Below are positions 11,951-30,899 of a DNA stretch of 32,000 bases, one piece after another (positions within the stretch are counted from its first letter, which is position 1; each line of letters starts with the position of its first letter). The notes under the pieces are model-generated. The model saw only the letters and a list, made by a program, of their open reading frames with translations, had not been told where the DNA came from and searched no databases. Source of the stretch: an uncultured Clostridia bacterium (GTDB lineage Bacteria; Bacillota; Clostridia; TANB77; CAG-508); contig CALXRX010000007.1 of assembly GCA_944390975.1 (NCBI GenBank), positions 13,636 through 45,635 on the forward strand, in the 5' to 3' direction. A program made the position numbers and the translations under genes.

Positions 11951-11981
11951 ATTTTTCTCCTTTCGTTTACAATTTGTCAAT

Positions 11982-12010: not shown

Positions 12011-12060
12011 TTGTTTTGTGATATTTTTTTATAAAATTTAATATTTTTTTCATTTACTGG

Positions 12061-12089: not shown

Positions 12090-12122
12090 AATGAAAAAAT
12101 ATGGAAAAAGAGGTAGAAATTT

Positions 12123-12692: not shown

Positions 12693-12713
12693 ATAATTTC
12701 TTGTAAAAAATAC

Positions 12714-12742
12714 TTGAATATTTGTTTTTTTAATAATATAAT
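12714..12742 (+). promoter_or_regulatory. Candidate SigA promoter for the 12778 gene
   Basis: TTGAAT, 17 bp, TATAAT, about 35 nt before the AAGGAG RBS. Confidence 0.35.
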
Positions 12743-12777
12743 ATGGATACAAAAGATAAATAAGGAGAGATATAATA

Positions 12778-13242: not shown

Positions 13243-13252
13243 TATATAAATT

Positions 13253-13274
13253 AAAGACGGAATAATCCGTCTTT
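13253..13274. terminator. Bidirectional terminator between convergent genes
   Basis: Stem AAAGACGGA / TCCGTCTTT with a 4-nt loop. It is flanked by A/T runs and overlaps the SDR stop codon. Confidence 0.6.
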
Positions 13275-13999
13275 TAAATTACCCATCCGCCATTTGGAGA
13301 TATAATTTGCCCAGTTGTATAAGTATCTTCAACTAACCATTTTGCACATTTTGCAATTTCTTCTGGCATTCCAAATCTTCCTAATGGTATTTGATTATTT
13401 ATTTCTTCAATTTCTTCCTTTGTACAATCATTATTCATATCTGTCATTATTGCACCTGGCGCAATTGAATTAACTCGTATTCCAGATGGTCCTAGTTCTT
13501 TTGCTAATGCTTTTGTTAAACCATCTATTCCAGCTTTACTAACAGAATATGCAACTTCACATGAAGCTCCTGTTATTCCCCATATAGAAGAAATATTTAT
13601 AATACATCCCTTTTTATATTTAATCATATCTTTTACTACTTCTTGAGTCATATAAAAAACAGAATTTAAATTACAAGAAATTAATTCATCCCAATCTTTA
13701 TCTGTAATATCAGTAAATAACTGCCATTTATCAATTCCTGCATTATTAACTAATATATCTATTTCACCAAATTTTTCTTTTGCAAATGCTATAAGCTTTT
13801 GGACTTCTTCTCTTTTAGAAACATCAGCTTTATATATTTCTACTTTATTCCCTTTTTGTGTTAAATCTTTTTTTAGGTTTTGTGCTTCTTGTTCAGACTT
13901 ATTATAATTAATTACTACATTTATCCCCATTTGTGCAAATTCTTCAACTATCGCTCTTCCAATACCTTTTGCTCCTCCTGTTATAATTGCTGTACTCAT
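13274..13999 (-). CDS. Short-chain dehydrogenase/reductase (FabG-like 3-oxoacyl-ACP reductase family)
   Basis: TGGAKGIGRAI cofactor motif, NNAG, and the catalytic YSVSKAG (YxxxK). Confidence 0.85.
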   Translation of the reverse strand: MSTAIITGGAKGIGRAIVEEFAQMGINVVINYNKSEQEAQNLKKDLTQKGNKVEIYKADVSKREEVQKLIAFAKEKFGEIDILVNNAGIDKWQLFTDITDKDWDELISCNLNSVFYMTQEVVKDMIKYKKGCIINISSIWGITGASCEVAYSVSKAGIDGLTKALAKELGPSGIRVNSIAPGAIMTDMNNDCTKEEIEEINNQIPLGRFGMPEEIAKCAKWLVEDTYTTGQIISPNGGWVI

Positions 14000-14950: not shown

Positions 14951-16675
14951 ATGTTAGTACAAAAATTTTATCATAGGCTATTTTTTTGCTTTATTTTTTG
15001 TTTTTTCCTCTGTTTAATTGGATTTATATTATTTAAACCTATTTTTTTAACTAATACAGTAATTATTCCCTATTCTTTACATCCTTATGATATATGTGCT
15101 ACTAAACCCGTTTTATGGCAGAATATTAAAATTTGTTTTATTATTTTTTACGTTATTTCTTCAATTATTTGTTCAAATTTTTTATATTCTTTAATTTTTC
15201 GAAAATATATACTTAATGTAAAGAAATTAAATAAAAAAAGCAATAAACTTATTAAGCCCAATTTAAATGATAAAAATTTATTTTTATTTGTAGGAAAAAA
15301 TGAAAGTGACAATTTAGTTTATATTCCAGAAAAAAGTTTATATCAAAACATTTTAATTACCGGTACTATTGGTACTGGAAAAACAAGTTCTTGTATGTAC
15401 CCATTTACAAAACAATTAATAAATTTCAATAATAATAACCCTAATTCTAAATTAGGCATGCTAATTTTGGATGTTAAAGGAAATTTCTATCGTGAAGTTA
15501 TTAATTTTGCAAGAAATTCTAATCGTTTGGATGATTTATATATAATTGAATTAGGAAAAAATGTAAAATATAATCCGCTTGATAAGCCAAATTTAAAACC
15601 AAGTGTTCTTGCTAATAGATTGAAAACAATTCTTATGCTTTTTTCTCCCAATAACTCGGATTCCTATTGGCTTGATAAAGTAGAGCAAGTTCTGACTGAA
15701 GCAATAAAATTCTGCAGGTTATATAATAATGGCTATGTTACTTTTTTAGAACTTCACAAATTAGTTACTATTCCAAATTATTATATCGATAAATTAGATA
15801 TTATAAAAGATATTTTTATTTCTGGTAAGTTATCCAAAAAAGATTGTTATGATGCAATTTCTTCAGTTGAATTTTTTGAAAAAGAATTTAATTCACTTGA
15901 TAATAGAACTTCTTCTATTATCAAATCCGAAATTACTCGTATTACAAATTGTTTTGTTTCAGATTATGATGTAATGAATACTTTTTGCCCCCAAAAAGAA
16001 GATATTACTTTCTCTGGTTTTAGAGATTTAGTAGATAATGGAAAAATTGTTGTATTAAATATGAATATTGCAGAATACAGGAATTTATCAAAAATTATTG
16101 CAACCTATTTAAAATTAGATTTTCAAACAGAAGTTATGAACAGATTAAATAGGTATGATAATAATGATTTTAGAAGTGTAGCATTTATATGTGATGAGTT
16201 TCATGAATACTGTTCTATCTCAGATGCAGATTTTTTTGCACAATCAAGAGAAGCAAAATGTATAAATATTGTTGCAACACAAAGCTATTCCTCTTTATTA
16301 AACTCAATTAATAATCAATATGCAGTAAAAGTAATTGTTCAGAATTTAATAAATAAATTTTGGTTTAGAACTGATGACATTAATACAATTGATGATATCC
16401 AAAAGCAAATTGGTAAAGAGGATAAAGTAAAAATATCTAAAAGTATTTCTGAAAATGCTAAGGAAACTCATTACAGCTATTTTACAAAATCCTTAAATTC
16501 TAAAGATTCAAATTTGTCTGAGAGTATAAATGAATATGTACAAAGTGATTATATTTATGATACTAATTTTTTTACTACAGGATTAGAAACCTTTTCATGT
16601 TTGTCCTTTTTATCTGATGGATATAAAATTTTAAAACCAATGAAATTAAAATTGATTCCATATTTTCGTAAATAA
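14951..16675 (+). CDS. VirD4/TraG/TraD-family type IV coupling protein (T4CP)
   Basis: 574 aa. N-terminal TM helices. Walker A ILITGTIGTGKTSS, then LILDVKGNF. Walker B VAFICDEFHEY, followed by AQSREAKCINIVATQSYSSL (TraG-D_C-like). AGGAGG RBS. Confidence 0.8.
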   Translation: MLVQKFYHRLFFCFIFCFFLCLIGFILFKPIFLTNTVIIPYSLHPYDICATKPVLWQNIKICFIIFYVISSIICSNFLYSLIFRKYILNVKKLNKKSNKLIKPNLNDKNLFLFVGKNESDNLVYIPEKSLYQNILITGTIGTGKTSSCMYPFTKQLINFNNNNPNSKLGMLILDVKGNFYREVINFARNSNRLDDLYIIELGKNVKYNPLDKPNLKPSVLANRLKTILMLFSPNNSDSYWLDKVEQVLTEAIKFCRLYNNGYVTFLELHKLVTIPNYYIDKLDIIKDIFISGKLSKKDCYDAISSVEFFEKEFNSLDNRTSSIIKSEITRITNCFVSDYDVMNTFCPQKEDITFSGFRDLVDNGKIVVLNMNIAEYRNLSKIIATYLKLDFQTEVMNRLNRYDNNDFRSVAFICDEFHEYCSISDADFFAQSREAKCINIVATQSYSSLLNSINNQYAVKVIVQNLINKFWFRTDDINTIDDIQKQIGKEDKVKISKSISENAKETHYSYFTKSLNSKDSNLSESINEYVQSDYIYDTNFFTTGLETFSCLSFLSDGYKILKPMKLKLIPYFRK

Positions 16676-16760
16676 TAATTTATTTTACTTTTAAATTAAT
16701 AATAAACAATTTTTTTAAACTGTTTTATATTTATTAAAATTTATTTTAGGAGGTTTTATT

Positions 16761-17090
16761 TTGAAAACAAAAAAATTATTTTTTATTTTATTTACTGTAT
16801 TTTTATTTATTATTATTTTATTTTCATCTGCTAATTATTCTTACTGTGCAGATCAAAAACTTGTAAATACTATAAATAAGGCTTTTGAACAAATACAAGA
16901 CTGGTTATTAAAGCTTGCAACCCCTGCTGCTGCAGTTGCTGTTGGCACTGGTGTTTTTATGAAAAAGTTTAGTTTTGGAGATGAAGAGAGAATTAGAGTT
17001 GGAAAAAAATTAATTAAAAGTTCTTTATTTTCTTATGCATTTATTCTAGCAATTGATTTAATTCTATCTGCTATTAAATCACTAATTTAA
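16761..17090 (+). CDS. Small TrbC/VirB2-like or Maff2-like membrane protein
   Basis: 109 aa. TTG start 7 nt after AGGAGG. A signal-like N-terminus is followed by two hydrophobic helices (LATPAAAVAVGTGVF and LFSYAFILAIDLILSAI) separated by a charged loop. Its position between T4CP and VirB6 matches clostridial conjugation modules. Confidence 0.55.
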   Translation: MKTKKLFFILFTVFLFIIILFSSANYSYCADQKLVNTINKAFEQIQDWLLKLATPAAAVAVGTGVFMKKFSFGDEERIRVGKKLIKSSLFSYAFILAIDLILSAIKSLI

Positions 17091-17105
17091 TAGGAGGTTG
17101 ATTTA

Positions 17106-17984
17106 TTGGAAGAAGAAATAAATATAACAGAAGTAATTATTAATTCTATTAATACTATTTTTCAAACTATTTTTTCATCTATTGATAATAATTTATATTC
17201 TATTATTGATGAAATAACTTTTGTTAATACAGATATTTTAGATACTTCTTATTTTAGAAATATTTTTGGTACATCAACAACAAATGGAATTCTTTTAATT
17301 GCAAATTCTCTTGTTTTAGGATTTTTTCTATATTATTGTTTTAAATTATTATTATCAAATCTTTTAATAACTCAAACAGAACGCCCTGTTAGTTTTATTT
17401 TTAAATTATTAATTTTTTGCATTTGCATGAATTCTTCAATATTTATTTGTGAACAGATAATTTTTATTAATAATTCTATTTCTTCTGCAATAAAAGAACT
17501 AGGAAATAATTTATTTGGAACTACTTTAAGCTTTTCTGCTTTAGTAGAAAAATTAAATATTATGATACAAATAGAAGAAAATAGTTTTACTATTTTTTCT
17601 ATAGATGGTTTGTTGAAAAGTATAATTTCAATTAGTTTTTTAAATTTAACTTTTTCTTATTCTCTAAGATACATAATGATAAAAGTGTTTGTTCTTATTT
17701 CTCCTTTTGCTTTTTTATCTCTTAGCACAAGTTCTACTTCTAGCTTTTTTAAAGCTTGGATTAAGTGTTTTTTATCATTATTATTTATACAAATTTTAGT
17801 GTCATTTGTTTTACTAATAATATTTTCTATAGATTTTAGCTCTAATAATATTTTTTCTAAATTTTTAATTTGTGGCTCTATTTTTGCTTTGCTTAAGGCT
17901 AATTCTTATGTTAGAGAATTTATGGGTGGAATTAGTACTGATATATCTAATAGCTTTAATGGTATAAAATCTTTTATTAAGTAG
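17106..17984 (+). CDS. VirB6/TrbL-like polytopic membrane protein
   Basis: 292 aa. TTG start 8 nt after AGGAGG. Multiple TM helices. The conserved-looking core is SYSLRYIMIKVFVLISPFAFLSL...FFKAWIKCFLSLLFIQ (an RY...SP...W.K pattern). Confidence 0.6.
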   Translation: MEEEINITEVIINSINTIFQTIFSSIDNNLYSIIDEITFVNTDILDTSYFRNIFGTSTTNGILLIANSLVLGFFLYYCFKLLLSNLLITQTERPVSFIFKLLIFCICMNSSIFICEQIIFINNSISSAIKELGNNLFGTTLSFSALVEKLNIMIQIEENSFTIFSIDGLLKSIISISFLNLTFSYSLRYIMIKVFVLISPFAFLSLSTSSTSSFFKAWIKCFLSLLFIQILVSFVLLIIFSIDFSSNNIFSKFLICGSIFALLKANSYVREFMGGISTDISNSFNGIKSFIK

Positions 17985-17995
17985 GTGTGTTAATT

Positions 17996-18277
17996 ATGAA
18001 ATTTATATTTCCTCAAAATTATAATTTTAATAGCAAATTATTTGGTTTTATTGATTATTCCACTGCTATATTGAATATTGTTTGGTTTAGTTTTGTTTTT
18101 TGTTTTGTTAATTTATTTTTTTCTAATATTAATTTAAAAATATTTATATTTATTGTTTTATGCTTTCCTGTATTACTATTTAGTATTATTGGATTTAATC
18201 ATGAAAATATTATATATGTTTTTATATATATTTCTAAATATGTTAGAAATCCTAAAATATATCTGTACAAAAGATAA
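17996..18277 (+). CDS. PrgI/TcpE/VirB3-like small two-TM protein
   Basis: 93 aa from ATG 17996; the track uses GTG 17987. Two TM helices. It occupies the slot that normally precedes virB4. Confidence 0.5.
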   Translation: MKFIFPQNYNFNSKLFGFIDYSTAILNIVWFSFVFCFVNLFFSNINLKIFIFIVLCFPVLLFSIIGFNHENIIYVFIYISKYVRNPKIYLYKR

Positions 18278-18307
18278 AATATTTTACGAATATTTTTAGT
18301 GTTAAAA

Positions 18308-18361
18308 TTCAGACTATTTTACTTTTTTAAAATTTATAGGTAATAGTATATAAATATTTTG
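18308..18361 (+). repeat. Direct repeat copy A (paired with 23328..23381)
   Basis: TTCAGACTATTTTACTTTTTTAAAATTTATAGGTAATAGTATATAAATATTTTG versus TTCAGACTATTTAACTTTTTTAAATTGATAGATAATTATATATAAATATTTTTG. About 88% identity with 2 single-nt gaps. Starts 31 nt after the PrgI-like stop. Confidence 0.6.
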
Positions 18362-18398
18362 AGCAATAATTTTTTAGTAGATAATTTTCTCCATTTTA

Positions 18399-18427
18399 TT
18401 GTATTAATTCTTTTAAAATGATATAAT
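18399..18427 (+). promoter_or_regulatory. Candidate extended -10 promoter for the dnaD-like/dnaI-like operon
   Basis: TTGTAT, 17 bp, TGaTATAAT (18419-18427), about 60 nt before the ATG at 18491. Confidence 0.4.
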
Positions 18428-18490
18428 TTGATATATTATTACATAAGATAAAAATTTATATATGATGTATACAAGGAGAGAAAAATATTT

Positions 18491-19456
18491 ATGAAATTAG
18501 AGCAAAATGATTTATCTATGATATTTTCTACAACAGAAATTTCTGACATTTTTTTTACAGAATATTTATCACAAGCGTCAGGTGACTATATAAAAGTTTA
18601 CTTATATATTTTATTTTTATCTAAATATGGAAAAGATGTTAAATTAAATGATTTAGCCAAAAAACTTTCATTACCTTTAAAAACTATACAAGATGCACTT
18701 AAATATTGGGAAGAAGAGGAAGTTATTATTAAAAAAAATACTGGTTATATTGTTAATAACCTTCAAGAAATAGAACTTCATAAATTATATAAACCAAAGC
18801 TTTCAACTACAGCTGATATAGAAAAAAATTCTAAAAACCAATATAGAGCAAAAGCAATTGATGCAATTAATACATCATTCTTCCAAGGTGTAATGTCTCC
18901 TTCTTGGTATAATGATATAGATTTATGGTTTAAAAAGTATGGCTTTGATGAACAAGTAATGCTTGCTTTATTTAGGTATTGTTTTGAAAGGTCTGCATTA
19001 CATAGAAACTACATACAAACAGTTGCTGATGCATGGCATAAAAATAATATAAAAACATTTTCAGATTTAGATTTATACTACCAAAAACAAGAAAAATTAA
19101 ACATTATAAAAAAATCTATTTCAAAAAAATTAGGATTAACTAGAGGATTAACACAATATGAAGAAGCATATATTGAAAAATGGGTTGTAGATTTTGGTTT
19201 TACCCTTGAAATAATAGAACTTGCTTTAAAAAGAACTACTTCTAAATCAAATTTCAGTTTTGATTATATAGATAAGATTCTTTGCGATTGGCAAGATAGA
19301 AATTTAAAAACTGTAGCAGATATTCAAAAATTTTTATTAGATATGAAAAATAAAAAAACAGATATAAAGAATTTAGAGAAAAAAAGTTATAATAATTATG
19401 AGCAAAGAAAATATGATAATTTTGATTCTCTTTATGCAAATGTTCAAAAGGCTTAA
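18491..19456 (+). CDS. DnaD/DnaB_2-domain replication initiation / helicase-loading protein
   Basis: 321 aa with two DnaB_2-like repeats: WFKKYGFDEQVMLALFRYCFERSALHRNYIQTVADAWHKNNIKT and YIEKWVVDFGFTLEIIELALKRTTSKSNFSFDYIDKILCDWQDRNLKT. Confidence 0.75.
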   Translation: MKLEQNDLSMIFSTTEISDIFFTEYLSQASGDYIKVYLYILFLSKYGKDVKLNDLAKKLSLPLKTIQDALKYWEEEEVIIKKNTGYIVNNLQEIELHKLYKPKLSTTADIEKNSKNQYRAKAIDAINTSFFQGVMSPSWYNDIDLWFKKYGFDEQVMLALFRYCFERSALHRNYIQTVADAWHKNNIKTFSDLDLYYQKQEKLNIIKKSISKKLGLTRGLTQYEEAYIEKWVVDFGFTLEIIELALKRTTSKSNFSFDYIDKILCDWQDRNLKTVADIQKFLLDMKNKKTDIKNLEKKSYNNYEQRKYDNFDSLYANVQKA

Positions 19457-19479
19457 AAAAATATTTAGGAGTTACACTT

Positions 19480-20478
19480 ATGAATGATTCTACTCTAAAA
19501 AAATTATTAAAAGAATATGATAAAAAAAGACAATTAGCATTTCTTGATTTAGATAAAAGAAAACAAGAATTATTTTCTTCTAATAAAAGATTAGAAGAAA
19601 TAGATAATGAAATTAATTCATATTCTATACAAATTGCAAAAAATATTTTATCTTCTCCAAATAATACTACTTTTTTGGAGAATTTAAGAAATAAAATAGA
19701 TACATTAAAAAAAGAAAAAAATATGCTTTTAAAAAGTTTGAATATAGATGATAATTTTTTTAAACCACATTTTGATTGCAATTTATGCAATGATACTGGA
19801 TATATTCAAGATGGTTATAGTTTTAATTTATGTTCATGCATCAAACAAAAATTATTTGATATTGAATATAATAAATCTAATATTGATAAATTAGAAAAAG
19901 ATAATTTTGATAATTTTAATTATAATTTATATTCTGATAATATTAATGAAGCTTTGTATTCTTCAAATTTATCTCCTAGAGATAATATTAAAAATATAAG
20001 AAAAATTGCATTATCTTTTATAAATAATTTTGATGATAGTAATGAAAAAAATTTACTATTTATAGGTAATACTGGTCTTGGTAAAACTTTTTTATCTAAT
20101 TGTATTGCAAATGAATTATTAAAAAAAGGAAAGACCGTTCTTTACCAAACTGCATCTGTTATGCTTGATTCTATTATTGATTATAGATTTAATAAAAATT
20201 CTTCTACAAATATGTATGAAAATATTTTAACTGTGGATTTATTAATTATTGACGATTTAGGAACTGAATTCATGAATAGTATGAAATTTAGTGAATTATT
20301 TAATGTAATAAATACTAGATTATTAAATCAAAATAATCATATTACTAAAACAATTATCTCAACTAATTTAAATTTACAAGAATTAAGCCAAAAATATGAT
20401 GAAAGAATTTTTTCAAGATTTGTTGGGTACTATAATATTTGTAGATTCTTTGGAGAGGATATTCGTTTTAAGAAGTAA
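19480..20478 (+). CDS. DnaI/DnaC-like helicase loader (AAA+ ATPase with N-terminal zinc-binding motif)
   Basis: CNLCNDTGY...CSC cysteine cluster. Walker A FIGNTGLGKTFL. Walker B LLIIDDLGTE. AGGAG RBS. Confidence 0.8.
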   Translation: MNDSTLKKLLKEYDKKRQLAFLDLDKRKQELFSSNKRLEEIDNEINSYSIQIAKNILSSPNNTTFLENLRNKIDTLKKEKNMLLKSLNIDDNFFKPHFDCNLCNDTGYIQDGYSFNLCSCIKQKLFDIEYNKSNIDKLEKDNFDNFNYNLYSDNINEALYSSNLSPRDNIKNIRKIALSFINNFDDSNEKNLLFIGNTGLGKTFLSNCIANELLKKGKTVLYQTASVMLDSIIDYRFNKNSSTNMYENILTVDLLIIDDLGTEFMNSMKFSELFNVINTRLLNQNNHITKTIISTNLNLQELSQKYDERIFSRFVGYYNICRFFGEDIRFKK

Positions 20479-20512
20479 GATACTCACAATATTTAAAATA
20501 TTGTGAGTATCT
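20477..20512 (+). terminator. Perfect 36-bp palindrome at the dnaI-like stop
   Basis: AAGATACTCACAATATTT|AAATATTGTGAGTATCTT, overlapping the TAA stop. Confidence 0.55.
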
Positions 20513-20541
20513 TATTAACATTTTAATAAGTTTTGTGGAAA

Positions 20542-20572
20542 AAAGGATGTGTAATTTTTTAACACATCCTTT
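20542..20572. terminator. Bidirectional intrinsic terminator between the dnaI-like gene and gyrA
   Basis: Stem AAAGGATGTGT / ACACATCCTTT, preceded by an A-run and followed by GATTTTTT, so it can function on either strand. Confidence 0.65.
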
Positions 20573-20703
20573 GATTTTTTGTTTAAATTTTAATTATTTT
20601 TTGTTATCTTTGAGTTGTTTCTTCATAGTCTTTTCTTTATGTTTTGTTTATTTTTATTTTTGTTTTTGTTTTTTATTACATTTTTTTATGTTTTATTTGT
20701 TTA

Positions 20704-23145
20704 TTACTCATTTATATTTTCTTCATTAGATATTGTTTCTATGCTTACAACTTTTGAGCCATCATTTGTTCTCATTAATGTAACTCCTTGAGTAGATCTT
20801 CCAAGAACACTTACTTCTTTAACTGCTAGTCTTATAATTGTTCCTTTGTCTGTAATAAGCATAACATCTTCATCTTCTCCAGTAACTCTAATTCCTACAA
20901 TTGTTCCTGTTTTTGGTGTTACTTTATATGTTATAACTCCTTTTCCACCTCTTGTTTGAACTCTATATTCATCTAATTCTGTTCTTTTTCCAAAACCATG
21001 TTCAGTTATTGCAAGTAATGTTGCTTTTACACCTGTTATTATAGATTCCATTCCTATTACATAGTCATCTTTATTTAATTTAATTCCTATAACTCCTTGT
21101 GCTACTCTACCAATTGGACGTACATCTTTTTCATCAAATGTAATACTCATACCTTCTTTTGTAACTAATACAACATTATCTTCTCCATCTGTAAGTCTTA
21201 CACCAATTAACTCATCATCTTCTTTTAATGTAATTCCTTGTAATCCTGTTTTTCTAGTTGTATTATACTCTGTTAGTGCTGTCTTTTTAATTAATCCATT
21301 TCTTGTTGCCATTAATAAGAATTTTCCTTCAGCAAAGTTTTGGATTGGAATAACCGCAGATATTTTTTCTCCAGCATCTAAACTTAATAAATTAACTATT
21401 GCTGTTCCTTTTGCAGTTCTTCCCGCTTCTGGTATTTCATATCCTCTTAATTTATATAGTTTTCCTTTGTTACTAAAGAATAAAATAGTATCATGAGTAG
21501 ATGCTGTAAATATTTGTTTTACAAAATCTTCTTCTCTAGTTGCTATTCCTGTAATTCCTTTTCCACCTCTTCTTTGGCTTTTATATGTATCAATTGGCAT
21601 TCTTTTTATATATCCAAAATGTGTTAAGGCTATTACTGTTTGTTCTTCTTTTATTAAATCTTCAACATCAAATTCTCCCTCTGCTGCAACTATTTTTGTT
21701 TTTCTTTCATCTCCAAATTTAGTTTTTATTTCTATTAATTCTTCTTTTATAATATCAAAAACTAATTTTTCGCTTCCTAATATTTCTTTTAAATGAGCAA
21801 TTAATTTCATCAATTCTTCATATTCTTCTTCTATTTTTTCTCTTTGCAATCCTGATAATGTTTTTAATCTCATGTCTAGAATTGCTTGTGCTTGAATATC
21901 TGAAAGACCAAATCTTTCCATTAATCTTTCTTTTGCATCATCATAAGAAGAACGAATTATATTAATTACTTCATCAATGTTGTCTAAAGCTATTTTTAAT
22001 CCCTCTAAAATATGTGCTCTTGCTTCAGCTTTATCTAATTCAAATTTTGTTCTACGTAAAATAACATTTTTTCTATGATCTAGATAATACTCTATACATT
22101 GTCTTAATGTTAATATTTTTGGCTCTCCATTTACAAGTGCTAACATGATAATTCCAAATGTATCTTGCATTTGTGTGTTTTTATATAATTGATTTAAAAC
22201 AACTTGTGCATTTGCGTCTCTTTTTAATTCAATAACAATTCTAACTTTTTCTTTTCTGTCTGATTCATCTCTTAGTTCTGATATTCCTTCAATTCTTTTA
22301 TCTCTAACTAAGTGTGATATATATTCAATTAGTTTTGCTTTGTTTACTTGATATGGTAATGATGATACTATTATTCTTTGTTTATTACCACTCATTTCCT
22401 CTATTTCTGCTTCAGCTCTTACTATAATTTTTCCTTTACCTGTTGTGTATGCTTCTTTAATTCCTTCTCTACCTAAAATTATTCCTTCTGTTGGAAAATC
22501 TGGTCCTTTTATTACTTGCATTAAATCTTCATCTGTTACATTGTCTTCCTCAATTACTTTTATTATTCCATTTACAACTTCTGTTAAATTGTGTGGTGGT
22601 ATATTTGTTGCCATTCCAACTGCAATTCCAGATGAGCCATTAACTAATAATGTTGGTATTCTAGCAGGTAATACTGTTGGCTCCTGTAATCTATCATCAT
22701 AGTTTGGCATAAAATCTACTGTGTTTTTTTCTATGTCTGTTAACATATAGTTTGATATTTTTGCCATTCTAGCTTCTGTATACCTCATGGCAGCAGCTCC
22801 ATCACCATCAATTGAGCCAAAATTTCCATGTCCATCAATTAGTGGGTATCTAAGTGAGAAATCTTGAGCCATTCTAACCATAGCATCATATACTGAAGAG
22901 TCTCCATGTGGATGGTATCTTCCAAGAACTGATCCTACTGTGTTTGCACATTTTCTATATGGCTTGTCTGATGTAATTCCATCTTCATGCATTGCATATA
23001 AAATTCTTCTATGCACTGGTTTTAATCCATCTCTAACATCTGGCAATGCACGTGATACAATTACACTCATTGCATAATCGATATAAGATGTTTTCATCTC
23101 ATTTTCAATATTTCTTTCTATAATTTTTTCTCCTGGTCTATCCAT
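20704..23145 (-). CDS. gyrA: DNA gyrase subunit A
   Basis: 813 aa. YAMSVIVSRALPDVRDGLKPVHRRILY, HPHGDSSVYDAMVRMAQ (QRDR region), active-site AAMRYTEARM, and C-terminal beta-pinwheel repeats. Confidence 0.97.
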   Translation of the reverse strand: MDRPGEKIIERNIENEMKTSYIDYAMSVIVSRALPDVRDGLKPVHRRILYAMHEDGITSDKPYRKCANTVGSVLGRYHPHGDSSVYDAMVRMAQDFSLRYPLIDGHGNFGSIDGDGAAAMRYTEARMAKISNYMLTDIEKNTVDFMPNYDDRLQEPTVLPARIPTLLVNGSSGIAVGMATNIPPHNLTEVVNGIIKVIEEDNVTDEDLMQVIKGPDFPTEGIILGREGIKEAYTTGKGKIIVRAEAEIEEMSGNKQRIIVSSLPYQVNKAKLIEYISHLVRDKRIEGISELRDESDRKEKVRIVIELKRDANAQVVLNQLYKNTQMQDTFGIIMLALVNGEPKILTLRQCIEYYLDHRKNVILRRTKFELDKAEARAHILEGLKIALDNIDEVINIIRSSYDDAKERLMERFGLSDIQAQAILDMRLKTLSGLQREKIEEEYEELMKLIAHLKEILGSEKLVFDIIKEELIEIKTKFGDERKTKIVAAEGEFDVEDLIKEEQTVIALTHFGYIKRMPIDTYKSQRRGGKGITGIATREEDFVKQIFTASTHDTILFFSNKGKLYKLRGYEIPEAGRTAKGTAIVNLLSLDAGEKISAVIPIQNFAEGKFLLMATRNGLIKKTALTEYNTTRKTGLQGITLKEDDELIGVRLTDGEDNVVLVTKEGMSITFDEKDVRPIGRVAQGVIGIKLNKDDYVIGMESIITGVKATLLAITEHGFGKRTELDEYRVQTRGGKGVITYKVTPKTGTIVGIRVTGEDEDVMLITDKGTIIRLAVKEVSVLGRSTQGVTLMRTNDGSKVVSIETISNEENINE

Positions 23146-23183
23146 TAAAATCCCTCTTTTTCGTTATATTTTAACCTAGTGTA

Positions 23184-23212
23184 ATTATACTTTAACATAT
23201 TAAAAATTGCAA
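23184..23212 (-). promoter_or_regulatory. gyrA-proximal SigA-type promoter
   Basis: On the minus strand: TTGCAA (23212..23207), 17 bp, TATAAT (23189..23184), about 35 nt upstream of the gyrA ATG. Confidence 0.5.
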
Positions 23213-23327
23213 GAATTTTTGACAAAAAATATAGAAAAAAGCCTAATATTTCAATAATTTTATTAGAATTATGATACTAATTTTTTTAGTTTTTTATAAT
23301 TATTTTTGTACTAATTTTTATTTAACG

Positions 23328-23381
23328 TTCAGACTATTTAACTTTTTTAAATTGATAGATAATTATATATAAATATTTTTG
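23328..23381 (+). repeat. Direct repeat copy B (paired with 18308..18361)
   Basis: See copy A. This copy ends 12 nt from the stop (23394) of the 253-aa minus-strand gene, so it is inverted relative to that gene. Confidence 0.6.
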
Positions 23382-23393
23382 TAATTATTTTTA

Positions 23394-24155
23394 TTATATT
23401 AATTTTTTAGCAAGTGCTAGTTCATCTTCTGAAAGATTAAAATCTTGTCCTTTATTTTTTATTAATGTATGTAAATTTTCTACTTGGTGTGCTTTTTTTA
23501 ATGTATCTTCTAATGGAATTAATTCTTCTAATTTTTCTTTTATTTTATTATATTCTAATTCCATTTTAGAGAAATTTTGTTGTTTATAATAAGTGTTCCA
23601 ATTATTTATATATTTATCTAATTTTTCTATACCTTTTAATTGATTTGTTAATGTATTTTCTATGTTGCTTTCTATATTGCTAATTAAAACATTTTTTCCA
23701 TTTTTTATTATATCTTCTAAACTATTTGGTAATATTCCACTTTTACTTGCTACATTTATTCCAAAATCTATTCCATCTGAAATTGTATCTAATAATCCTC
23801 CTTTTTCAACTGCTTTTTGTATTTGTGTAATATTATCAAATTTTCCTGTTACTATTCCTAATGCACTTTTACCTAAATCAATTGCACTTTCTATCGTTTT
23901 ATTTATTCCTTCTTTAAAACCTTCTTTTATTATTGTATCTTTTATTTCTATTACTTGGTCTTCTATAACATCTGGTAATAAATATCTAAGCCCTACATTT
24001 AAAGCTGTATTTATGGTTTTTCCAAGTGTTGTGTCTAAAAAATTATTTTGTTTTTCTGCAGTTATATTATAATCTATATTGTTATTTATTAATTTATTTT
24101 CATTTTCTAAATTATTTTGGGTTGGTTTATTATCTTTTTCTAATTCTACAGTCAT
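23394..24155 (-). CDS. Hypothetical soluble, helix-rich protein; last gene of the virB4 to parA-like gene string
   Basis: 253 aa. GAAAGGAA RBS. No TM segment or signal peptide, and an N/K/E/I-rich composition. I recognise no family. Confidence 0.6.
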   Translation of the reverse strand: MTVELEKDNKPTQNNLENENKLINNNIDYNITAEKQNNFLDTTLGKTINTALNVGLRYLLPDVIEDQVIEIKDTIIKEGFKEGINKTIESAIDLGKSALGIVTGKFDNITQIQKAVEKGGLLDTISDGIDFGINVASKSGILPNSLEDIIKNGKNVLISNIESNIENTLTNQLKGIEKLDKYINNWNTYYKQQNFSKMELEYNKIKEKLEELIPLEDTLKKAHQVENLHTLIKNKGQDFNLSEDELALAKKLI

Positions 24156-24200
24156 TTATTTTTTCCTTTCTATTTATATTTATTATTTTAATTTTGTTTT

Positions 24201-24440
24201 AATTAATTATTTTTTTTTACTATTTTATTTTCATTTTTTAATTAATTATTTTTTTATTTACTTTTTTATTTTTATTTTTTAATTAATTATTTTTTTATTT
24301 ACTTTTTTATTTTTATTTTTTAATTAATTATTTTTTTATTTACTTTTTTATTTTCATTTTTTAATTAATTATTTTTCAATTTACTATTTTATTTTTGTTA
24401 ATTAATTTATTTTTAATTTATTATTTTATTTTTGTTTTTT
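24201..24440. repeat. Tandem array of about six 37-41-bp units, each starting AATTAATT
   Basis: Unit starts at 24201, 24240, 24281, 24322, 24363 and 24400, with a partial unit at 24441. Units 2 and 3 are identical (AATTAATTATTTTTTTATTTACTTTTTTATTTTTATTTTTT) and unit 4 differs by 1 nt. The array occupies most (240 of 283 nt) of the intergenic space. Confidence 0.8.
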
Positions 24441-25812
24441 AATTTTCTATTTTTTCTAAATAATATTTTTTTAATTTATTATTTCTAATTATTTTTTTTG
24501 CAATATTTTTATATTGTTTTTTTATTTTATTTTCTAAAAATATTTCATTCATGTTTTGATTAATTAAAGTATTACATTTTTTTATAAAATTAATTTTTCC
24601 TATTATATTATAATTTTTAAAAACTTCTTTTAAAATATCAAAACATATAGTATCACTTTTTATTTTATTAAATAAAATATATATTTTTTCTTTATTTATA
24701 TTCCACTCATTTAAATATTTTTCAAGTAAATTTTTTGCTTTTTTTATTTGTAATAAATTTGGCTCTGTCATAAATATTATTTTATCTGCATTATTTACTA
24801 AATTTGTTATGCTTTTATAATTTATATTATTATTTTTTTCTTGTTCAAAATCTATTAATATATAATCATATTTATTTTTTAAATTATTTATTATTTTAAT
24901 TAATTCAATATCATTATTTATAATATTATTTATTTTAGAGATTAAATCTATTTTTGAATTAATTTTTATTATTTCCTCATTTAATTCTGTTTCTTCCTGA
25001 ATATTATTTTTTTGATTTTCACTATTTTTTACATTTTTATTTTTTATATTTTTTCCAAATAGAGTTTGTATGCTGTTATTAATGTAATCGAAATCTATTA
25101 TTAATATTTTTTTATTTAATTTTTCTAATTGCTTAGCTATATTTACAGTAAATATTGTTTTTCCTACACCTGTACATCCACTAATAATTATTAATTTTGA
25201 AATTGTTTTTTTATTTTCTTTTTTTATAATTTTTAATATACTATTTATTATTTTATTTTTTAATAAATTATTTTCATATTCTTTTTTTATTTCTGTTTCT
25301 ATTTCTATTTTTTCTTCTTTTGTAATTAAATTTATTTTTTCATTGTTTTTTATTTCTTTTTTTTCATTTTTTTCAATATTTTTTTCTTTATTTTCTTCTT
25401 TGTTTAATATTATTTTTTTTAATTCTTTTATTTCATTTTCTAATTCTTCTTTTTTATTTTTATTTATTATTAATTCTGCTATTTCTTTTATTTCTATTTC
25501 ATTGTTATAAAATATATTAATATTTCCTTTTGCAAATAAATAATTTTCTAATGCTTTGTTTTCTTTTTCTAGTATAATTATTAATTTTATTTCTTTTTTT
25601 ATATTTTTTATTTCTTCTATTAGTTCTTTTATATTATATTTTCCTGGTAGCAATTCGCTAATAATTATAATTTCAATATCTGGATGTATTTCTAATGCTT
25701 CTATAATTCCTTCTTGATATTGTATATCATTCATTACTATTTCTATTTCTTTGTATTCTTTTAGTTTTTCATTAACATTTTTATTTAGTAAAGCTGTAAT
25801 TAATTTTTTCAT
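24439..25812 (-). CDS. MinD/ParA-superfamily P-loop ATPase (CpaE/TadZ-like) with N-terminal pseudo-receiver domain and K/E/N-rich linker
   Basis: 457 aa. The N-terminal ~115 aa has a receiver-like alternating beta/alpha pattern but lacks the acidic pocket (LITALLNKN in place of the DD pair, IIISE at the phospho-Asp position). The P-loop is IIISGCTGVGKT, followed by ILIIDFD and YDYILIDFE, both MinD-like. Confidence 0.65.
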   Translation of the reverse strand: MKKLITALLNKNVNEKLKEYKEIEIVMNDIQYQEGIIEALEIHPDIEIIIISELLPGKYNIKELIEEIKNIKKEIKLIIILEKENKALENYLFAKGNINIFYNNEIEIKEIAELIINKNKKEELENEIKELKKIILNKEENKEKNIEKNEKKEIKNNEKINLITKEEKIEIETEIKKEYENNLLKNKIINSILKIIKKENKKTISKLIIISGCTGVGKTIFTVNIAKQLEKLNKKILIIDFDYINNSIQTLFGKNIKNKNVKNSENQKNNIQEETELNEEIIKINSKIDLISKINNIINNDIELIKIINNLKNKYDYILIDFEQEKNNNINYKSITNLVNNADKIIFMTEPNLLQIKKAKNLLEKYLNEWNINKEKIYILFNKIKSDTICFDILKEVFKNYNIIGKINFIKKCNTLINQNMNEIFLENKIKKQYKNIAKKIIRNNKLKKYYLEKIEN

Positions 25813-25841
25813 TTTTGAAATCCCCTTTTTTATAGGTATAA

Positions 25842-27428
25842 CTAAATTTTATTTATTATTTCTTTTTCAAAATTGTTTGCTTCTATTTTTGTTAGAATAT
25901 GATTTTCTCCTGCAAACATTAAGCATTCTCCTCTTTTTAATGATTTTATTTCTACTTTTTCTTTTTCTGATAAGTTAGAATATTGTGCTAATATTTTTAT
26001 GTTTTCTTCTTCTAATGAAAAAAAAGTTTTTATGCTTGTATTGTTTAATATACTTCTTCCATATATTCCATTTTCTAAACTAAATAAATCTGATATGTCT
26101 TGAGTTATTGCTACTGCACTTCCTCCATATTTTCTTATTGTTTTAAATATTTTATATATAAAGCTTGCTACGTTTTTATTTGATGTTACTCCAATTAGTC
26201 TCCATATTTCATCTAGATATATTGCTTTTTTTACTTTTCTGTTTATTTTTATTTTATCCCAAAATAATTCTGTAAATATATACATTCCATATTGTAAATT
26301 TTCTTCTCCTAATTCATATACATCTGCAACTATAAAGTTGTTATCTATTTTTACGTTTGTGTATTGGTTAAAAAATTTTAATGAGCCTTTTATAAATGGA
26401 ATTAATTTTGTTTTAAATACTTTTGTTTTTGGATCTTTGTCTAAAATATTATATAAATCTTCTAATATTGGCATGTCTTTACTGTCTTTAAATATTTTTG
26501 TTATTGTAATTTTATTTTCTTCATTTTTGTATAAGCTTTCATCATCAAATGTTATTCCTTTTTCTGAATAACATTGAATTAATTTGTCTTCTAATATTGC
26601 TTTTTCTTCTTCATCCATTTCTCCAAAAATTAAATTAAAAAAGCCTATTAGTTTTCCTATTTTTGTTGCTAAATATCCTTTTTCATTTTCTTCTATACTT
26701 TCTTTTCTTATATCAAATATATTTATGTATGTACTAGATGTTGGTCCTATTTTTAACAGTGTTCCACCTAAGTTTTTGCAAATGTTATTATATTCTCTAT
26801 CTGGATCTATTACATATTGTTCTATTCCTAATAATCTATTTCTTAGTATTAGTAATTTTGTGTAAAATGATTTTCCTGCTCCACTTGTTCCAAATATGCT
26901 TATATTTGCATTTTTATATTTATTTGTATTATATCTGTCTATAAAAACTAAACTGTTGTTATATATGTTTGTTCCTATGTATATTCCATTTTCATCAAAT
27001 ATTGATGATGATATAAATGGATATGTTGATACAAGGCCTTGTGTTAATATGTTTCTTTTACTTACTTCTTTTATGTCTTCATGATTTTTCATTATTGGCA
27101 TGCATGATAAAAATGCTTGTTCTTGTCTAAAGTATGCTCTTCTTGTTTGCATTCCTTTACTTTGTATTATTCCTTCTGTTTTATTTATAAGGTATTCTAA
27201 TTCTTTTTTATTTTTTGTGAATAAGTTTATATAAATATATAAAAAATATAGTTCTTCATTGTTTACTTGCATTTGTTTTCTGATGTATTTTGCGTCATTG
27301 TATGTAAATGCTGCTATGTCTATATCTTGACTATTTTGATTTTTATTTTGTAAATCTACTCCTACATTTCCAATATGATATGTTAATTCTCTAATTATTT
27401 TATATGAGTCTTTTTTCTCATAAAACAT
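25842..27428 (-). CDS. VirB4-family (TraE/TcpF/PrgJ-like) conjugation ATPase, P-loop part
   Basis: Walker A ISIFGTSGAGKSFYTKLL and Walker B AIYLDEIWRLI. The first canonical start is ATG 27428, but the frame is open and homologous up to 27692 (DIIAPTYINLQNPKYIEIDDIYYSSLLI). Confidence 0.85.
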   Translation of the reverse strand: MFYEKKDSYKIIRELTYHIGNVGVDLQNKNQNSQDIDIAAFTYNDAKYIRKQMQVNNEELYFLYIYINLFTKNKKELEYLINKTEGIIQSKGMQTRRAYFRQEQAFLSCMPIMKNHEDIKEVSKRNILTQGLVSTYPFISSSIFDENGIYIGTNIYNNSLVFIDRYNTNKYKNANISIFGTSGAGKSFYTKLLILRNRLLGIEQYVIDPDREYNNICKNLGGTLLKIGPTSSTYINIFDIRKESIEENEKGYLATKIGKLIGFFNLIFGEMDEEEKAILEDKLIQCYSEKGITFDDESLYKNEENKITITKIFKDSKDMPILEDLYNILDKDPKTKVFKTKLIPFIKGSLKFFNQYTNVKIDNNFIVADVYELGEENLQYGMYIFTELFWDKIKINRKVKKAIYLDEIWRLIGVTSNKNVASFIYKIFKTIRKYGGSAVAITQDISDLFSLENGIYGRSILNNTSIKTFFSLEEENIKILAQYSNLSEKEKVEIKSLKRGECLMFAGENHILTKIEANNFEKEIINKI

Positions 27429-27692
27429 TGATATATTTACATTTATGTTTGTGTCTATTAAATTTTTTAATAATAAATCGGTTTGTTCTCTATAATAATT
27501 TACTATTAATAGTGAGGAATAATATATATCATCTATTTCTATGTATTTTGGATTTTGTAAATTTATATATGTTGGTGCTATAATATCTTTTTGATTTATT
27601 GCTCCTTCTAAAAATTCTAATTTTGGGTTTTCTGTTTCTTTATTTTTTTTATTATTTTTAAATATTTGTATTTTTATTTTTTTTCCTCCTTT

Positions 27693-28268
27693 TTAATTAT
27701 TTTCGATAAAATTTTTTGTACTTAAAAATGATAATATTATTTGTATTATTTCTTCTTTTGAATCATATTCTTGTACTACATTTCCACATCTCGATAGACA
27801 TTCTTTTATTTTAAAATATTTTTCGTTTAAGTCTTGAAATATAATTTCTTCATTAATATTTTCTTTTTTGTTTTTATGGGAGTTTTTTATTATGATATAA
27901 AAATTTTTTGATGATGATTTTTTTTCATTGTTTATTTTTTGAATAAAATTTATATAATTTTGAGATAATTCTAAAATATTTTTATTTGTTTCTTTTTCCA
28001 TTTGTGTGTTTATGTTTGAACTATGTTTTGATAAATCTTTTTTATTACTTTGAATTAATATCTGAATGTCAAAATTACATGTTTTTAAGAAAATTTTATA
28101 AGAATTTAAAATTGCTTCTTTTTCTAATTCTGATTTTAAATTATAGTTTATTGGAATAACTTTTAGGATTTTAACATAGGAATTGTCTTTTAATTTTATA
28201 ATTCCTTTTTCAAAAATTGTTTGAATTGGCAACCAGTTCTGTACAGAAAAAATTTGTTTTTCCTCCAT
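27693..28268 (-). CDS. VirB4-family ATPase, N-terminal domain fragment (same frame as 25842..27692, ended by a single TAA)
   Basis: 191 aa. WLPIQTIFEKGIIKLKDNSYVKILKVIPINYNLKSELEKEAILNSYKIFLKTCNFDIQILIQS matches the N-terminal domain pattern of Gram-positive VirB4 proteins. AAGGAG RBS. Confidence 0.7.
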   Translation of the reverse strand: MEEKQIFSVQNWLPIQTIFEKGIIKLKDNSYVKILKVIPINYNLKSELEKEAILNSYKIFLKTCNFDIQILIQSNKKDLSKHSSNINTQMEKETNKNILELSQNYINFIQKINNEKKSSSKNFYIIIKNSHKNKKENINEEIIFQDLNEKYFKIKECLSRCGNVVQEYDSKEEIIQIILSFLSTKNFIENN

Positions 28269-28297: not shown

Positions 28298-28326
28298 ATA
28301 ATAAATCTTTTTCTTTGCTTTGTCAA
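28298..28326 (-). promoter_or_regulatory. Strong SigA-type promoter of the virB4 operon
   Basis: On the minus strand: consensus TTGACA (28326..28321), 17 bp, TATTAT (28303..28298), about 30 nt before the ATG at 28268. Confidence 0.5.
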
Positions 28327-28334
28327 CAAAAACA

Positions 28335-28352
28335 TTTCGACACCTTTCGACA
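28335..28352 (-). promoter_or_regulatory. Two direct 8-bp repeats one helical turn apart, abutting the -35
   Basis: Plus strand TTTCGACA at 28335-28342 and 28345-28352 (minus strand TGTCGAAAggTGTCGAAA). These are GC-containing words in a very AT-rich spacer. Confidence 0.35.
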
Positions 28353-28468
28353 GTTGCTTTTCCATTTTTTTCTTTTTATTTTTTGTATATATTTTTTATT
28401 TTTGCTTATAATAATGTCATAAGGTTAATATTAGTCGAACAAAGAGTAATATTAGGTTTATTTAAAGC

Positions 28469-28497
28469 TTTTTATTATTTGAGCAAAGATGTATAAT
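28469..28497 (+). promoter_or_regulatory. Candidate extended -10 promoter firing toward gyrB (orphan plus-strand unit)
   Basis: TGTATAAT at 28490-28497 with a weak -35 (TTTTTA). There is no plus-strand ORF of 60 aa or more downstream. Confidence 0.3.
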
Positions 28498-28862
28498 GGC
28501 TTTATTTTAGGTTATTATATGTCGGCGATAAGAAATTATTATTTGTATGCAGGCTATATTTACTTATATTAATTATTTTTAATTTTTATTTGTTTTAATA
28601 TATGGTTATATTATAGGTAATAATTTTGAGTTAAGATTATATTTATATTTTTGCTAATATTTTTTATTTTATTTATTATTATATTAAATATTATTAAGTG
28701 GTTGTTATTAGTCCCATGAGGATGAATATGGTTACTTAGGGTGTATTTATAGTCGAGCGACTGATTTTTATGTGTGGTGAATTGCTTATTTATATAGCAA
28801 TATATATTAGGTAAGTAATTATGCATATTAGTTTTAGCTGTAGATTAATATTAGCTTTATAG

Positions 28863-28905
28863 ATTAATAGCGTAATAATGTTATTTGCATTATTACGCTA
28901 TTAAT
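28863..28905. terminator. 18-bp perfect hairpin between the gyrB 3' end and the non-coding gap
   Basis: ATTAATAGCGTAATAATG, loop ttatttg, CATTATTACGCTATTAAT. On the plus strand ATTTTATTG follows. It lies about 80 nt downstream of the gyrB stop on the minus strand, where no U-run follows. Confidence 0.55.
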
Positions 28906-28985
28906 ATTTTATTGTAAAGCAAAACCACATATAAGATTTTTCATTTATAAAATACAAAATGGTTAAGCTTTTCTTATTTGCTTTA

Positions 28986-30899
<1,914 letters not shown>

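Follow-up and report, generated by a model that had tools for sequence, protein, structure and literature searches.

The closest published parallel to the locus described here is the chromosomal type IV secretion system (T4SS) of the Patescibacteria, or candidate phyla radiation (CPR). This MPF-FATA-derived system is encoded without a relaxase nearby and often beside dnaA/dnaN (Quinonero-Coronel et al. 2025, PMC12102498). It has VirB2-like pilins, is widespread in a host-dependent clade with reduced genomes, and its co-option for a non-conjugative role has been inferred (PMC12102498). The present locus lies on a stretch of 32,000 nucleotides from an uncultured Clostridia bacterium (contig CALXRX010000007.1, positions 13,636 to 45,635), referred to as the window. 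It carries a T4SS gene set interleaved with gyrB, gyrA and two helicase-loading genes, and with good confidence it is read as a domesticated, functional and vertically inherited T4SS of the gut order TANB77. The set is regarded as host equipment because it is syntenic in 80 species, has diverged together with GyrB, is under purifying selection and keeps its ATPase motifs intact. No paper linking TANB77 to a T4SS was found in the literature.

Similar to the Patescibacteria system, the TANB77 locus is chromosomal, proximal to the origin, devoid of a relaxase in the cluster and conserved across its clade. A difference is the position of virD4, which lies within the TANB77 locus and is mostly encoded far from virB4 in Patescibacteria (PMC12102498). 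The TANB77 system also belongs to Bacillota/Clostridia (the donor group), has a split VirB4 and is near-invariantly interleaved with gyrB, gyrA and dnaD/dnaI. The likeness is one of architecture, and common descent of the two VirB4 clades is neither claimed nor excluded.

The archaeal Ced/Ted systems, reportedly the subject of work by Beltran et al. in 2023, are said to import DNA. Both these and the ComB system of Helicobacter pylori resemble the TANB77 locus as conjugation machinery domesticated by its host, with a VirB2-like, VirB6-like and VirB4-like core and no relaxase. They differ in having no coupling protein and in importing DNA, whereas TANB77 retains a conserved VirD4. The conjugation modules of Gram-positive bacteria (CD1110/CD1115 of Clostridia, Prg/Pcf of pCF10, Tra/Trs of pIP501 and pSK41) contain the same kinds of VirB4, coupling protein, VirB6-like and PrgI-like components. 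The best-scoring family model for the VirB4 of the window is CD1110. For the coupling protein, TraD/TrwB-type models come closer than CD1115 does. The two VirB4 polypeptides resemble TrsD and TrsE of pSK41, which reflects a shared architecture and not family membership. Unlike these modules, the TANB77 locus contains no relaxase, VirB8/TcpC-like protein, hydrolase, adhesin or integrase, and it is inherited vertically.

The gonococcal genetic island (GGI) of Neisseria gonorrhoeae encodes a chromosomal T4SS whose secreted DNA benefits the population and which includes a coupling protein and a ParA-like ATPase. The VirC1 protein of Agrobacterium is also ParA-like. The GGI is a horizontally acquired island with the relaxase TraI and diderm F-type machinery; in contrast to the GGI and VirC1, the ParA-like gene of TANB77 is dispensable. 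A ‘conserved TANB77 pilin’ cluster described in Nature Communications was considered as the same locus and excluded, as it is a Tad-type pilus (CpaB, CpaF, TadB/C) encoded elsewhere. The features new to the present system are its occurrence in a clade within Bacillota, the kept VirD4, the split VirB4, a clade-specific orphan protein and the interleaving with gyrB, gyrA, dnaD and dnaI.

Layout, conservation and vertical descent

The window has a G+C content of about 23% and reads under the standard bacterial code, with gyrA and gyrB intact. An earlier note, made from the letters of this DNA, had described a T4SS-like set in two convergent halves around gyrA, the second half lying between gyrB and gyrA. 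This layout is seen exactly as described, and all the genes that the note named are present at the positions it gave. Proteins of the window were searched against Pfam and NCBIfam profiles. The genes of the interleaved region, with sizes in amino acids (aa), are as follows.

14951..16675, plus strand: VirD4-type coupling ATPase, 574 aa, with N-terminal transmembrane helices (Pfam TrwB_AAD_bind 7e-11 and TraG-D_C 6e-8, both above gathering scores)
16761..17090, plus strand: VirB2-like pilin precursor, 109 aa (Pfam T4SS_pilin 1.8e-5, just under the cut-off; TrbC 1e-3)
17106..17984, plus strand: VirB6-like polytopic membrane protein, 292 aa (fold match and weak profile matches of orthologues)
17987..18277, plus strand: 96-aa membrane protein with two transmembrane helices, weakly PrgI/VirB3-like (orthologue alignment and PrgI matches)
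18491..19456, plus strand: DnaD/DnaB_2-domain replication protein (Pfam DnaB_2 1e-31)
19480..20478, plus strand: DnaI/DnaC-like helicase loader (NCBIfam PRK06835 equivalog 4e-104, 348 bits against a cut-off of 215)
20704..23145, minus strand: gyrA, an 813-aa open reading frame (ORF) that divides the T4SS gene set into two halves
23394..24155, minus strand: conserved 253-aa orphan, soluble and all-helical with a disordered N-terminus (AlphaFold pLDDT 76)
24173..24498, no strand assigned: AT-rich tandem array of a 41-bp unit in about 8 copies (TRF score 373)
24439..25812, minus strand: ParA/MinD-like ATPase, 457 aa (Pfam AAA_31 6e-13, CbiA, ParA)
25842..27677 (ORF from 27680), minus strand: VirB4 ATPase, about 611 aa (NCBIfam CD1110 family, positions 183-731, 8e-89)
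27693..28268, minus strand: VirB4 N-terminal domain as a separate gene (virB4-N), 191 aa, TraC-like or TrsD-like (NCBIfam CD1110, positions 1-131, 4e-10)
28986..30899, minus strand: gyrB, a 637-aa ORF

Read from the right end of the window, the minus strand carries recF (cut by the window end), remB, gyrB, a 717-bp spacer, virB4-N and the VirB4 ATPase gene, followed by the ParA/MinD-like gene, the 41-bp array, the 253-aa orphan and gyrA. The plus-strand genes for the VirD4-like protein, the 109-aa pilin-like protein, the 292-aa and 96-aa membrane proteins and the dnaD-like and dnaI-like products (the last ending at 20478) converge on gyrA. An exact copy of the GyrB of the window is found on four metagenome contigs, which have dnaA-dnaN-recF-remB upstream and the same genes after gyrB. 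The dnaD-like and dnaI-like genes are, by their family matches, probably the host's own housekeeping copies for helicase loading. In the loci of relatives, the dnaD-like gene always adjoins the 96-aa gene, and the gyrA homologues contain the DNA_topoisoIV and DNA_gyraseA_C families.

For comparison, one genome per species was scanned, giving 80 loci from 80 species (labels L005 to L090 denote loci of related genomes). Every locus was picked via VirB4 or via the spacer RNA described below, so that all counts are among TANB77 carriers of the system. The species are uncultured Clostridia of human, mouse, rabbit, chicken and ruminant guts, and the presence of Candidatus Merdicola among the loci identifies the group as GTDB order TANB77, family CAG-508. 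The gene set is fixed in position: of 63 informative loci, 60 have gyrB directly upstream on the same strand, and of 48, 45 have gyrA following the 253-aa gene, again on the same strand. At most 10 kb separates the two halves of the set in 32 of 40 loci, 29 of which have them in convergent orientation. Independent metagenome contigs have the same layout with dnaA-dnaN-recF-remB upstream, and contigs with VirB4 homologues at 78-88% identity contain the whole arrangement, including gyrA, dnaI, dnaD and the VirB6-like, pilin and VirD4 genes. Contiguous gyrB-gyrA in close relatives, which the earlier note had named among its refuting conditions, was not found in any of these loci, all chosen via VirB4 or the RNA.

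The exceptions to this layout are rearrangements and not losses. The block from virD4 through dnaI is inverted in L057 and L086. The T4SS genes lie away from gyrB/gyrA in L070 (9432-19069) and L049 (7436-14138), where virD4 directly follows the 253-aa gene on the same strand. The ten genes from virB4-N to dnaI form a single co-directional block in L070, between leuS and a capsule-synthesis gene; its flanks (leuS, ABC-transporter genes and the capsule-synthesis gene) contain no mobility genes. The L049 contig ends within the pilin gene.

Descent of the set is vertical. Pairwise distances of every T4SS protein correlate with those of GyrB (r 0.76-0.92, compared with 0.86 for RecF). The core genes are under purifying selection, with ratios of nonsynonymous to synonymous substitution rates (dN/dS) of 0.02-0.35, within the range of recF and dnaI; as dS is high (0.4-1.3) for several pairs, single values are rough, and the closest pairs agree. 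Even between species whose VirB4 differs by up to about 35%, the ORFs remain intact. The closest plasmid-borne VirB4 has 37% identity; it is fused to PrgI and encoded on a plasmid of Vescimonas. Among representatives of 50%-identity clusters, the VirB4 family comprises one cluster at 73%, then a few proteins of about 600 aa at 44-53%. The ordinary VirB4s of 800-1000 aa in this library are mostly at most 41% identical, with one fused 849-aa protein at 47%.

Related loci also have insertions at variable spots. In these, no relaxase or effector was found; prepilin-like, toxin-antitoxin-like and transposase-like ORFs were recognized by eye. ORFs with prepilin-like N-termini (GITIITLVITIIILLILAGI), likewise seen by eye only, are inserted near gyrA in L034 (15057-15959) and L015 (16965-17993).

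Components of the secretion system

The VirB4 ATPase, with a median identity of 74%, is better conserved than DnaI (55%) or DnaD (60%). It matches PDB entry 4AG5, the C-terminal domain of VirB4, at 4e-44, its Walker A and B motifs are invariant in 81 sequences, and its dN/dS is 0.03-0.13. The gene for its N-terminal partner, virB4-N, is present at 76 of the 80 species loci. This protein scores 5.7e-6 with the NCBIfam TrsD model, below the cut-off of that model, and its relatives are assigned to Pfam PF26593 (TraC-like) in precomputed annotations.

The earlier note had reported VirB4 in two pieces. Two ORFs are indeed present, and in the window they share a frame with one in-frame TAA between them; they are not a broken gene. 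Homologues of the ATPase form more than 100 clusters of 587-624 aa, not of about 800 aa, and most of the related genomes have the two ORFs in different frames. The junction always has a strong AGGAGG, with a start codon 6-9 nt further on that is often ATA or ATT instead of ATG. Because of these homologues of about 600 aa, the differing frames and the separate ribosome-binding site, the split is, on comparative grounds, a conserved two-gene architecture and no pseudogene. Both a pseudogene and readthrough of the in-frame TAA were excluded by the homologue lengths and by the differing frames in most species. Mollicute genetic code 4 was also excluded as a cause of the split, as gyrA and gyrB are intact under code 11.

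In the window, an ATA at 27677 lies 7 nt after the AGGAGG and is most likely the start of the ATPase; the first ATG comes only at 27428. At the conserved start, many orthologues have ATA or ATT in place of ATG, GTG or TTG. This suggests that non-canonical initiation codons may be frequent in these very AT-rich genomes. A consequence is that gene callers shorten the protein, which in the window is called with 528 aa against a likely length of about 611.

The VirD4-type protein is very divergent, and a profile search of PDB sequences gave no informative match. All of 20 orthologues match TraD-type coupling-protein models, far below the whole-protein cut-offs of these. With its two domain matches above gathering scores, its identity as a coupling ATPase is solid at domain level. 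Its Walker A and B motifs do not vary among 23 orthologues, and dN/dS is 0.04-0.17. The virD4 gene is frameshifted in two lineages, one represented by three independent assemblies (L008, L009 and L010, about 20580-21857) and the other by L046 (10834-12484); the remaining T4SS genes are intact in both. A frameshifted VirD4 may function as two chains.

In the pilin-like protein, a signal peptide precedes two hydrophobic helices that are linked by a charged loop, and the mature part is nearly invariant. The orthologues of this protein match T4SS_pilin in 16 of 16 cases, likewise just under the threshold. The 292-aa membrane protein of the window has no Pfam match itself; 16 of 28 orthologues match TrbL/VirB6 weakly. 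Its AlphaFold model (pLDDT 75.5) has TrwI/VirB6 of R388 as all of its best 8 PDB matches, with probabilities of 0.96-1.0, an E-value of 2e-3 and TM-scores of about 0.36-0.40. With a dN/dS of 0.02-0.21, it is assigned as VirB6-like with moderate confidence. The small membrane protein has a conserved start that is probably the ATG at 17996. Its size and position fit VirB3/PrgI and its dN/dS is 0.06-0.20; PrgI is matched by 7 of 29 orthologues (best E-value 0.0055) and not by the window protein itself.

The 253-aa orphan is found at all 48 informative loci with a dN/dS of 0.05-0.35, and has no signal peptide. No Pfam or NCBIfam family matches it, and among its 2492 homologues a Pfam domain is found in none of those listed. 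Its model has no fold match in PDB or BFVD, and the protein was excluded as an equivalent of VirB8, VirB5 or a hydrolase on account of this and of its all-helical fold.

The ParA-like ATPase has a long, low-complexity N-terminal half rich in K, N, I and E, encoded at a G+C content of 11-16%. The gene is full-length in 12 of the 49 loci with any match and is truncated or absent in many species. Its dN/dS of 0.20-0.47 marks it as the sole relaxed and poorly conserved member of the set, and by this pattern it is an accessory, variable part, the one that appears dispensable. The 41-bp array lies in a stretch of about 11% G+C between the ParA-like and 253-aa genes. It was not found at the corresponding position in L016, and the two homologues are only 33 bp apart in L005; the array is, from these comparisons, specific to the lineage of the window. 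A role as centromere or iteron was dismissed, as the array is not conserved.

These results bear out the assignments of VirD4, VirB2-like, VirB6-like, VirB4, MinD/ParA-like and orphan proteins that the earlier note had made, through profiles, the fold match and orthologues. Pfam and NCBIfam profiles support VirB4 and VirD4, and VirB6 is reached via weak orthologue matches and the fold search. The PrgI/VirB3-like claim holds for a small membrane protein with two helices; the identity with PrgI/VirB3 is weak (7 of 29 orthologues). A strong Shine-Dalgarno sequence had also been claimed for every T4SS gene. The sites are weaker at the 96-aa, 253-aa and ParA-like genes, and strong sites are general in this genome, including those of gyrB and remB.

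Proposed mechanism and alternatives

From the gene set, and by analogy with T4SSs that have been solved, we infer the following model of assembly, transport direction and substrate. The source of the system would be a conjugation module of Gram-positive bacteria, MPF-FA/FATA-type and CD1110-like, that settled beside the replication origin in the TANB77 ancestor. Since then it has been inherited vertically as host equipment, and would no longer serve its own transfer. The VirB6-like protein and the small two-helix membrane protein would form a membrane platform. On this platform the two-polypeptide VirB4 (N-domain protein and ATPase) would dock and drive the assembly of the VirB2-like pilin into a conduit or pilus, while the VirD4-type ATPase would recruit and pump the substrate. 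The 253-aa helical protein may be a clade-specific cytoplasmic partner and the ParA-like ATPase an optional accessory. In this way a macromolecule would be moved across the envelope, probably upon cell contact.

Several points weigh against a functional export machine of this kind. No VirB8/TcpC-like family and no CHAP/SLT/lysozyme-type peptidoglycan hydrolase was detected with Pfam among the ORFs of the 32-kb window, and a VirB8/TcpC-like scaffold and a peptidoglycan hydrolase are normally needed in monoderm T4SSs. These two functions may be encoded elsewhere or replaced. The VirB6 fold match has low TM-scores (0.36-0.40), and the PrgI/VirB3 assignment of the 96-aa protein is weak. The frameshifts in VirD4 indicate that the coupling protein may be dispensable, which weakens the export model.

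The absence of mobility genes had been claimed in the earlier note, together with that of VirB8/TcpC and CHAP/lysozyme proteins, and is confirmed, none having a Pfam match in the window ORFs. Relaxase and Rep_trans families are missing both from the Pfam matches of the window ORFs and from the annotations of the 10-kb flanks in L005-L010, and no integrase or recombinase family was found among the window ORFs. Flanking att sites were not seen in the window, where repeats were not searched exhaustively.

The nature of the substrate divides the interpretations of a domesticated T4SS. DNA, exported or exchanged with a relaxase encoded elsewhere or with none, is tentatively and slightly preferred over proteins or interaction with a partner cell. 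Conservation of the coupling protein favours export. That no relaxase is found nearby, together with the VirD4 frameshifts in two lineages, suggests that classical relaxase-piloted DNA transfer is not the whole story. It is a credible possibility that the same machine serves instead for proteins or partner-cell contact in cells that depend obligately on others, whether to deliver effectors, to adhere or to acquire nutrients; such a use has been suggested for Saccharibacteria and other Patescibacteria. TANB77 have been described as likely obligate symbionts with highly reduced genomes (PMC11332333; PMC11680825), and one complete chromosome, that of L051, measures 1.55 Mb. In one strain, epibiotic growth requires the Patescibacteria T4SS, which has the same hallmarks (PMC12102498). 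In the window and the annotated flanks of relatives, the TANB77 system has no relaxase near it, and VirD4 is lost or split in two lineages. However, no effector, adhesin or toxin candidate is conserved in the locus, the 253-aa protein is without a signal peptide or an informative fold match, and VirD4 is otherwise strictly conserved with intact motifs. That the machine imports DNA, as a competence system of the ComB or Ced/Ted type, is unlikely. Its minimal VirB2-like, VirB6-like and VirB4 set corresponds to the archaeal Ced/Ted core, a relaxase is absent and VirD4 is dispensable in two lineages, but nearly all species conserve a coupling ATPase whose motifs are intact. Uptake T4SSs are not known to have a coupling ATPase.

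It is most improbable that the set is an ordinary integrative and conjugative element (ICE) or integrated conjugative plasmid with the gyrB-gyrA interval as its target, gained recently or on repeated occasions. In favour of this, the VirB4 is of a conjugation family (CD1110-like), the window has a ParA-like gene and a repeat array, and L070 and L049 carry the gene set elsewhere in the genome. Against this, integrase, relaxase and att are absent, protein distances co-vary with GyrB, order and orientation are the same in dozens of species and the closest relative on a plasmid reaches 37% identity; the repeat array is not conserved, and the flanks in L070 are without mobility genes. Equally remote is a decaying ICE or plasmid remnant whose non-functional genes have not yet been deleted, as could be read from the VirB8-like, hydrolase and relaxase genes missing from the window, the two VirB4 ORFs with one in-frame stop between them and the ParA-like gene that is degenerate or absent in many species. 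Decay is contradicted by a dN/dS of 0.02-0.35, intact ORFs and invariant catalytic motifs, and by the conserved VirB4 split, where the second ORF has a ribosome-binding site of its own and, in most species, another frame than the first. Reduced genomes would also be expected to shed useless DNA quickly.

The earlier note had left three options open. A chromosomally fixed, repurposed T4SS without a dedicated relaxase is the one strongly supported, by the synteny, co-divergence, selection and motifs cited at the outset. An integrated plasmid and an ICE in decay are both contradicted, as there is no decay, no integrase or att and no patchy distribution. Nor is the repeat array conserved; the ParA-like gene is dispensable and the dnaD/dnaI genes look like the host's own. 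At most, these two options describe the remote origin of the locus and not its present state.

TANB77 is a prevalent, uncultured gut order that is thought to depend on other organisms. The domesticated T4SS is a strong candidate for a role in DNA exchange or partner interaction, and hence in resistance to cultivation. It would be an independent case, inside Bacillota, of the domestication of conjugation machinery that is seen in Patescibacteria and archaea. Such a case makes convergent exaptation testable, in terms of which parts are retained and whether a relaxase is needed. TANB77 has also been linked to the response to cancer immunotherapy (PMC11680825).

The gyrB-virB4 spacer and other genes of the window

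The 717-bp spacer between gyrB and virB4-N is far better conserved than the synonymous sites of the flanking genes. It contains the following features.

28298..28326, minus strand: sigma-70-type promoter of the virB4 operon, TTGACA-17-TATTAT (best regional match, 11 of 12 positions; conserved across loci)
28336..28352, minus strand: operator-like direct repeat TGTCGAA-N3-TGTCGAA, between the divergent promoters (conserved in distant loci)
28383..28412, plus strand: promoter-like site of the RNA, TTGTAT-18-TATAAT (read from sequence; -35 and -10 blocks conserved in the alignment)
28419..28912, plus strand: structured non-coding RNA of about 490 nt (covariation, folding; no Rfam family)
28863-28905, plus strand: terminator hairpin, followed by a T-rich tail, at the 3' end of the RNA

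The RNA is encoded antisense to both neighbours, convergent with gyrB and divergent from virB4. The minimum free energy of the spacer has a z-score of -7.55 on the plus strand and -3.98 on the minus strand, against shuffled sequence, and many invariant G-U pairs fix the strand. An alignment of 41 species yields a consensus of ten helices with 112 base pairs, which a long-range stem closes; compensatory double changes are seen in 73 of these pairs. In an independent count, 97.7% of cells are paired, and sliding the partners lowers this to 35-45%. The score for covariation is 0.374, compared with about 0.07, and in 500 shuffles the observed values were never reached.

On this unusually clean covariation support, the RNA is a new class of large structured RNA. 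Rfam gave no match at gathering scores, and only noise at E-values up to 10 for the window and L064, OLE (RF01071) included; ARAGORN detected no tmRNA in the window. OLE variant 1, RNase P, tmRNA, 6S and SRP RNA, as well as ROOL and GOLLD, were excluded for want of an Rfam match. The spacer was also dismissed as a small-protein gene, as it has ORFs of 22-71 aa only, with unconvincing low-complexity translations, and its substitutions are compensatory changes in pairing. The RNA resembles OLE, ROOL, GOLLD and raiA in being large and multi-helical, with strong covariation, and in occurring in anaerobic Bacillota. The usual context of OLE is ole-oapA, and the position of the spacer RNA, convergent with gyrB and divergent from virB4, is unlike it. 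OLE ‘variant 1’ has been reported in TANB77 (PMC11332333).

The promoters of the RNA and virB4 are divergent and about 60 bp apart. The consensus -35 that the earlier note had attributed to the virB4 string is confirmed as part of the conserved TTGACA-17-TATTAT promoter, so the operon has a promoter of its own. TGTCGAA has only two sites in the window, both within the operator-like repeat, which is not present upstream of virD4. The repeat suggests that the RNA and virB4 may share regulation.

A pattern scan of metagenomes gave 117 matching DNA stretches. The RNA adjoins the 3' end of gyrB in 115 of 115 loci examined, and virB4-N is on its other side wherever the contig extends so far. The sequence of gyrB, then RNA, then virB4 offers a practical marker of TANB77 in metagenomes. 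Loci with a short spacer (L024, L083 and L088/L089) lack the RNA; it is also absent upstream of virB4-N in L070 and L049, where the T4SS genes lie away from gyrB. As a result of these absences, a strict functional tie to the T4SS is not established. It is rather improbable that RNA and T4SS form one functional unit, transcribed in opposite directions from a common control region with the operator-like repeat, and with the RNA as a component, regulator or even cargo of the machine. If this were true, an RNA-linked T4SS would be a defining organ of the TANB77 lifestyle.

The remaining genes of the window are ordinary and comprise ABC transporters, CorA, GNAT, VanW/G5, an XRE-S24 repressor, a short-chain dehydrogenase and four tRNAs. 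Genes for a VanW/G5/PG_binding_4 wall protein, an XRE-S24 (LexA/CI-like) repressor, a CBM53/CBM25-like protein of 154 aa and a short-chain dehydrogenase co-occur at 10066-13999, and this group remains near virD4 even where the virD4 block is inverted. The VanW/G5/PG_binding_4 protein is encoded 3.3 kb from virD4 and is a common neighbour in relatives.

At 1254-2838 on the minus strand, an ABC-F-like gene (ABC_tran and ABC_tran_Xtn) is present as two successive ORFs of 383 and 163 aa, the second with a partial ABC_tran. This could be a frameshift, or another instance, besides VirB4, of a missed non-canonical start. A series of small ORFs at 5648-7700 on the plus strand, two for helix-turn-helix proteins followed by three of 66, 212 and 159 aa without a family match, may be a small accessory or defence islet. 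In L005 (17908-18874), representing one lineage of mouse-gut metagenome-assembled genomes, the dnaD-like gene is called as two overlapping ORFs of 157 and 179 aa; the window and most relatives have one undivided gene of 321 aa.

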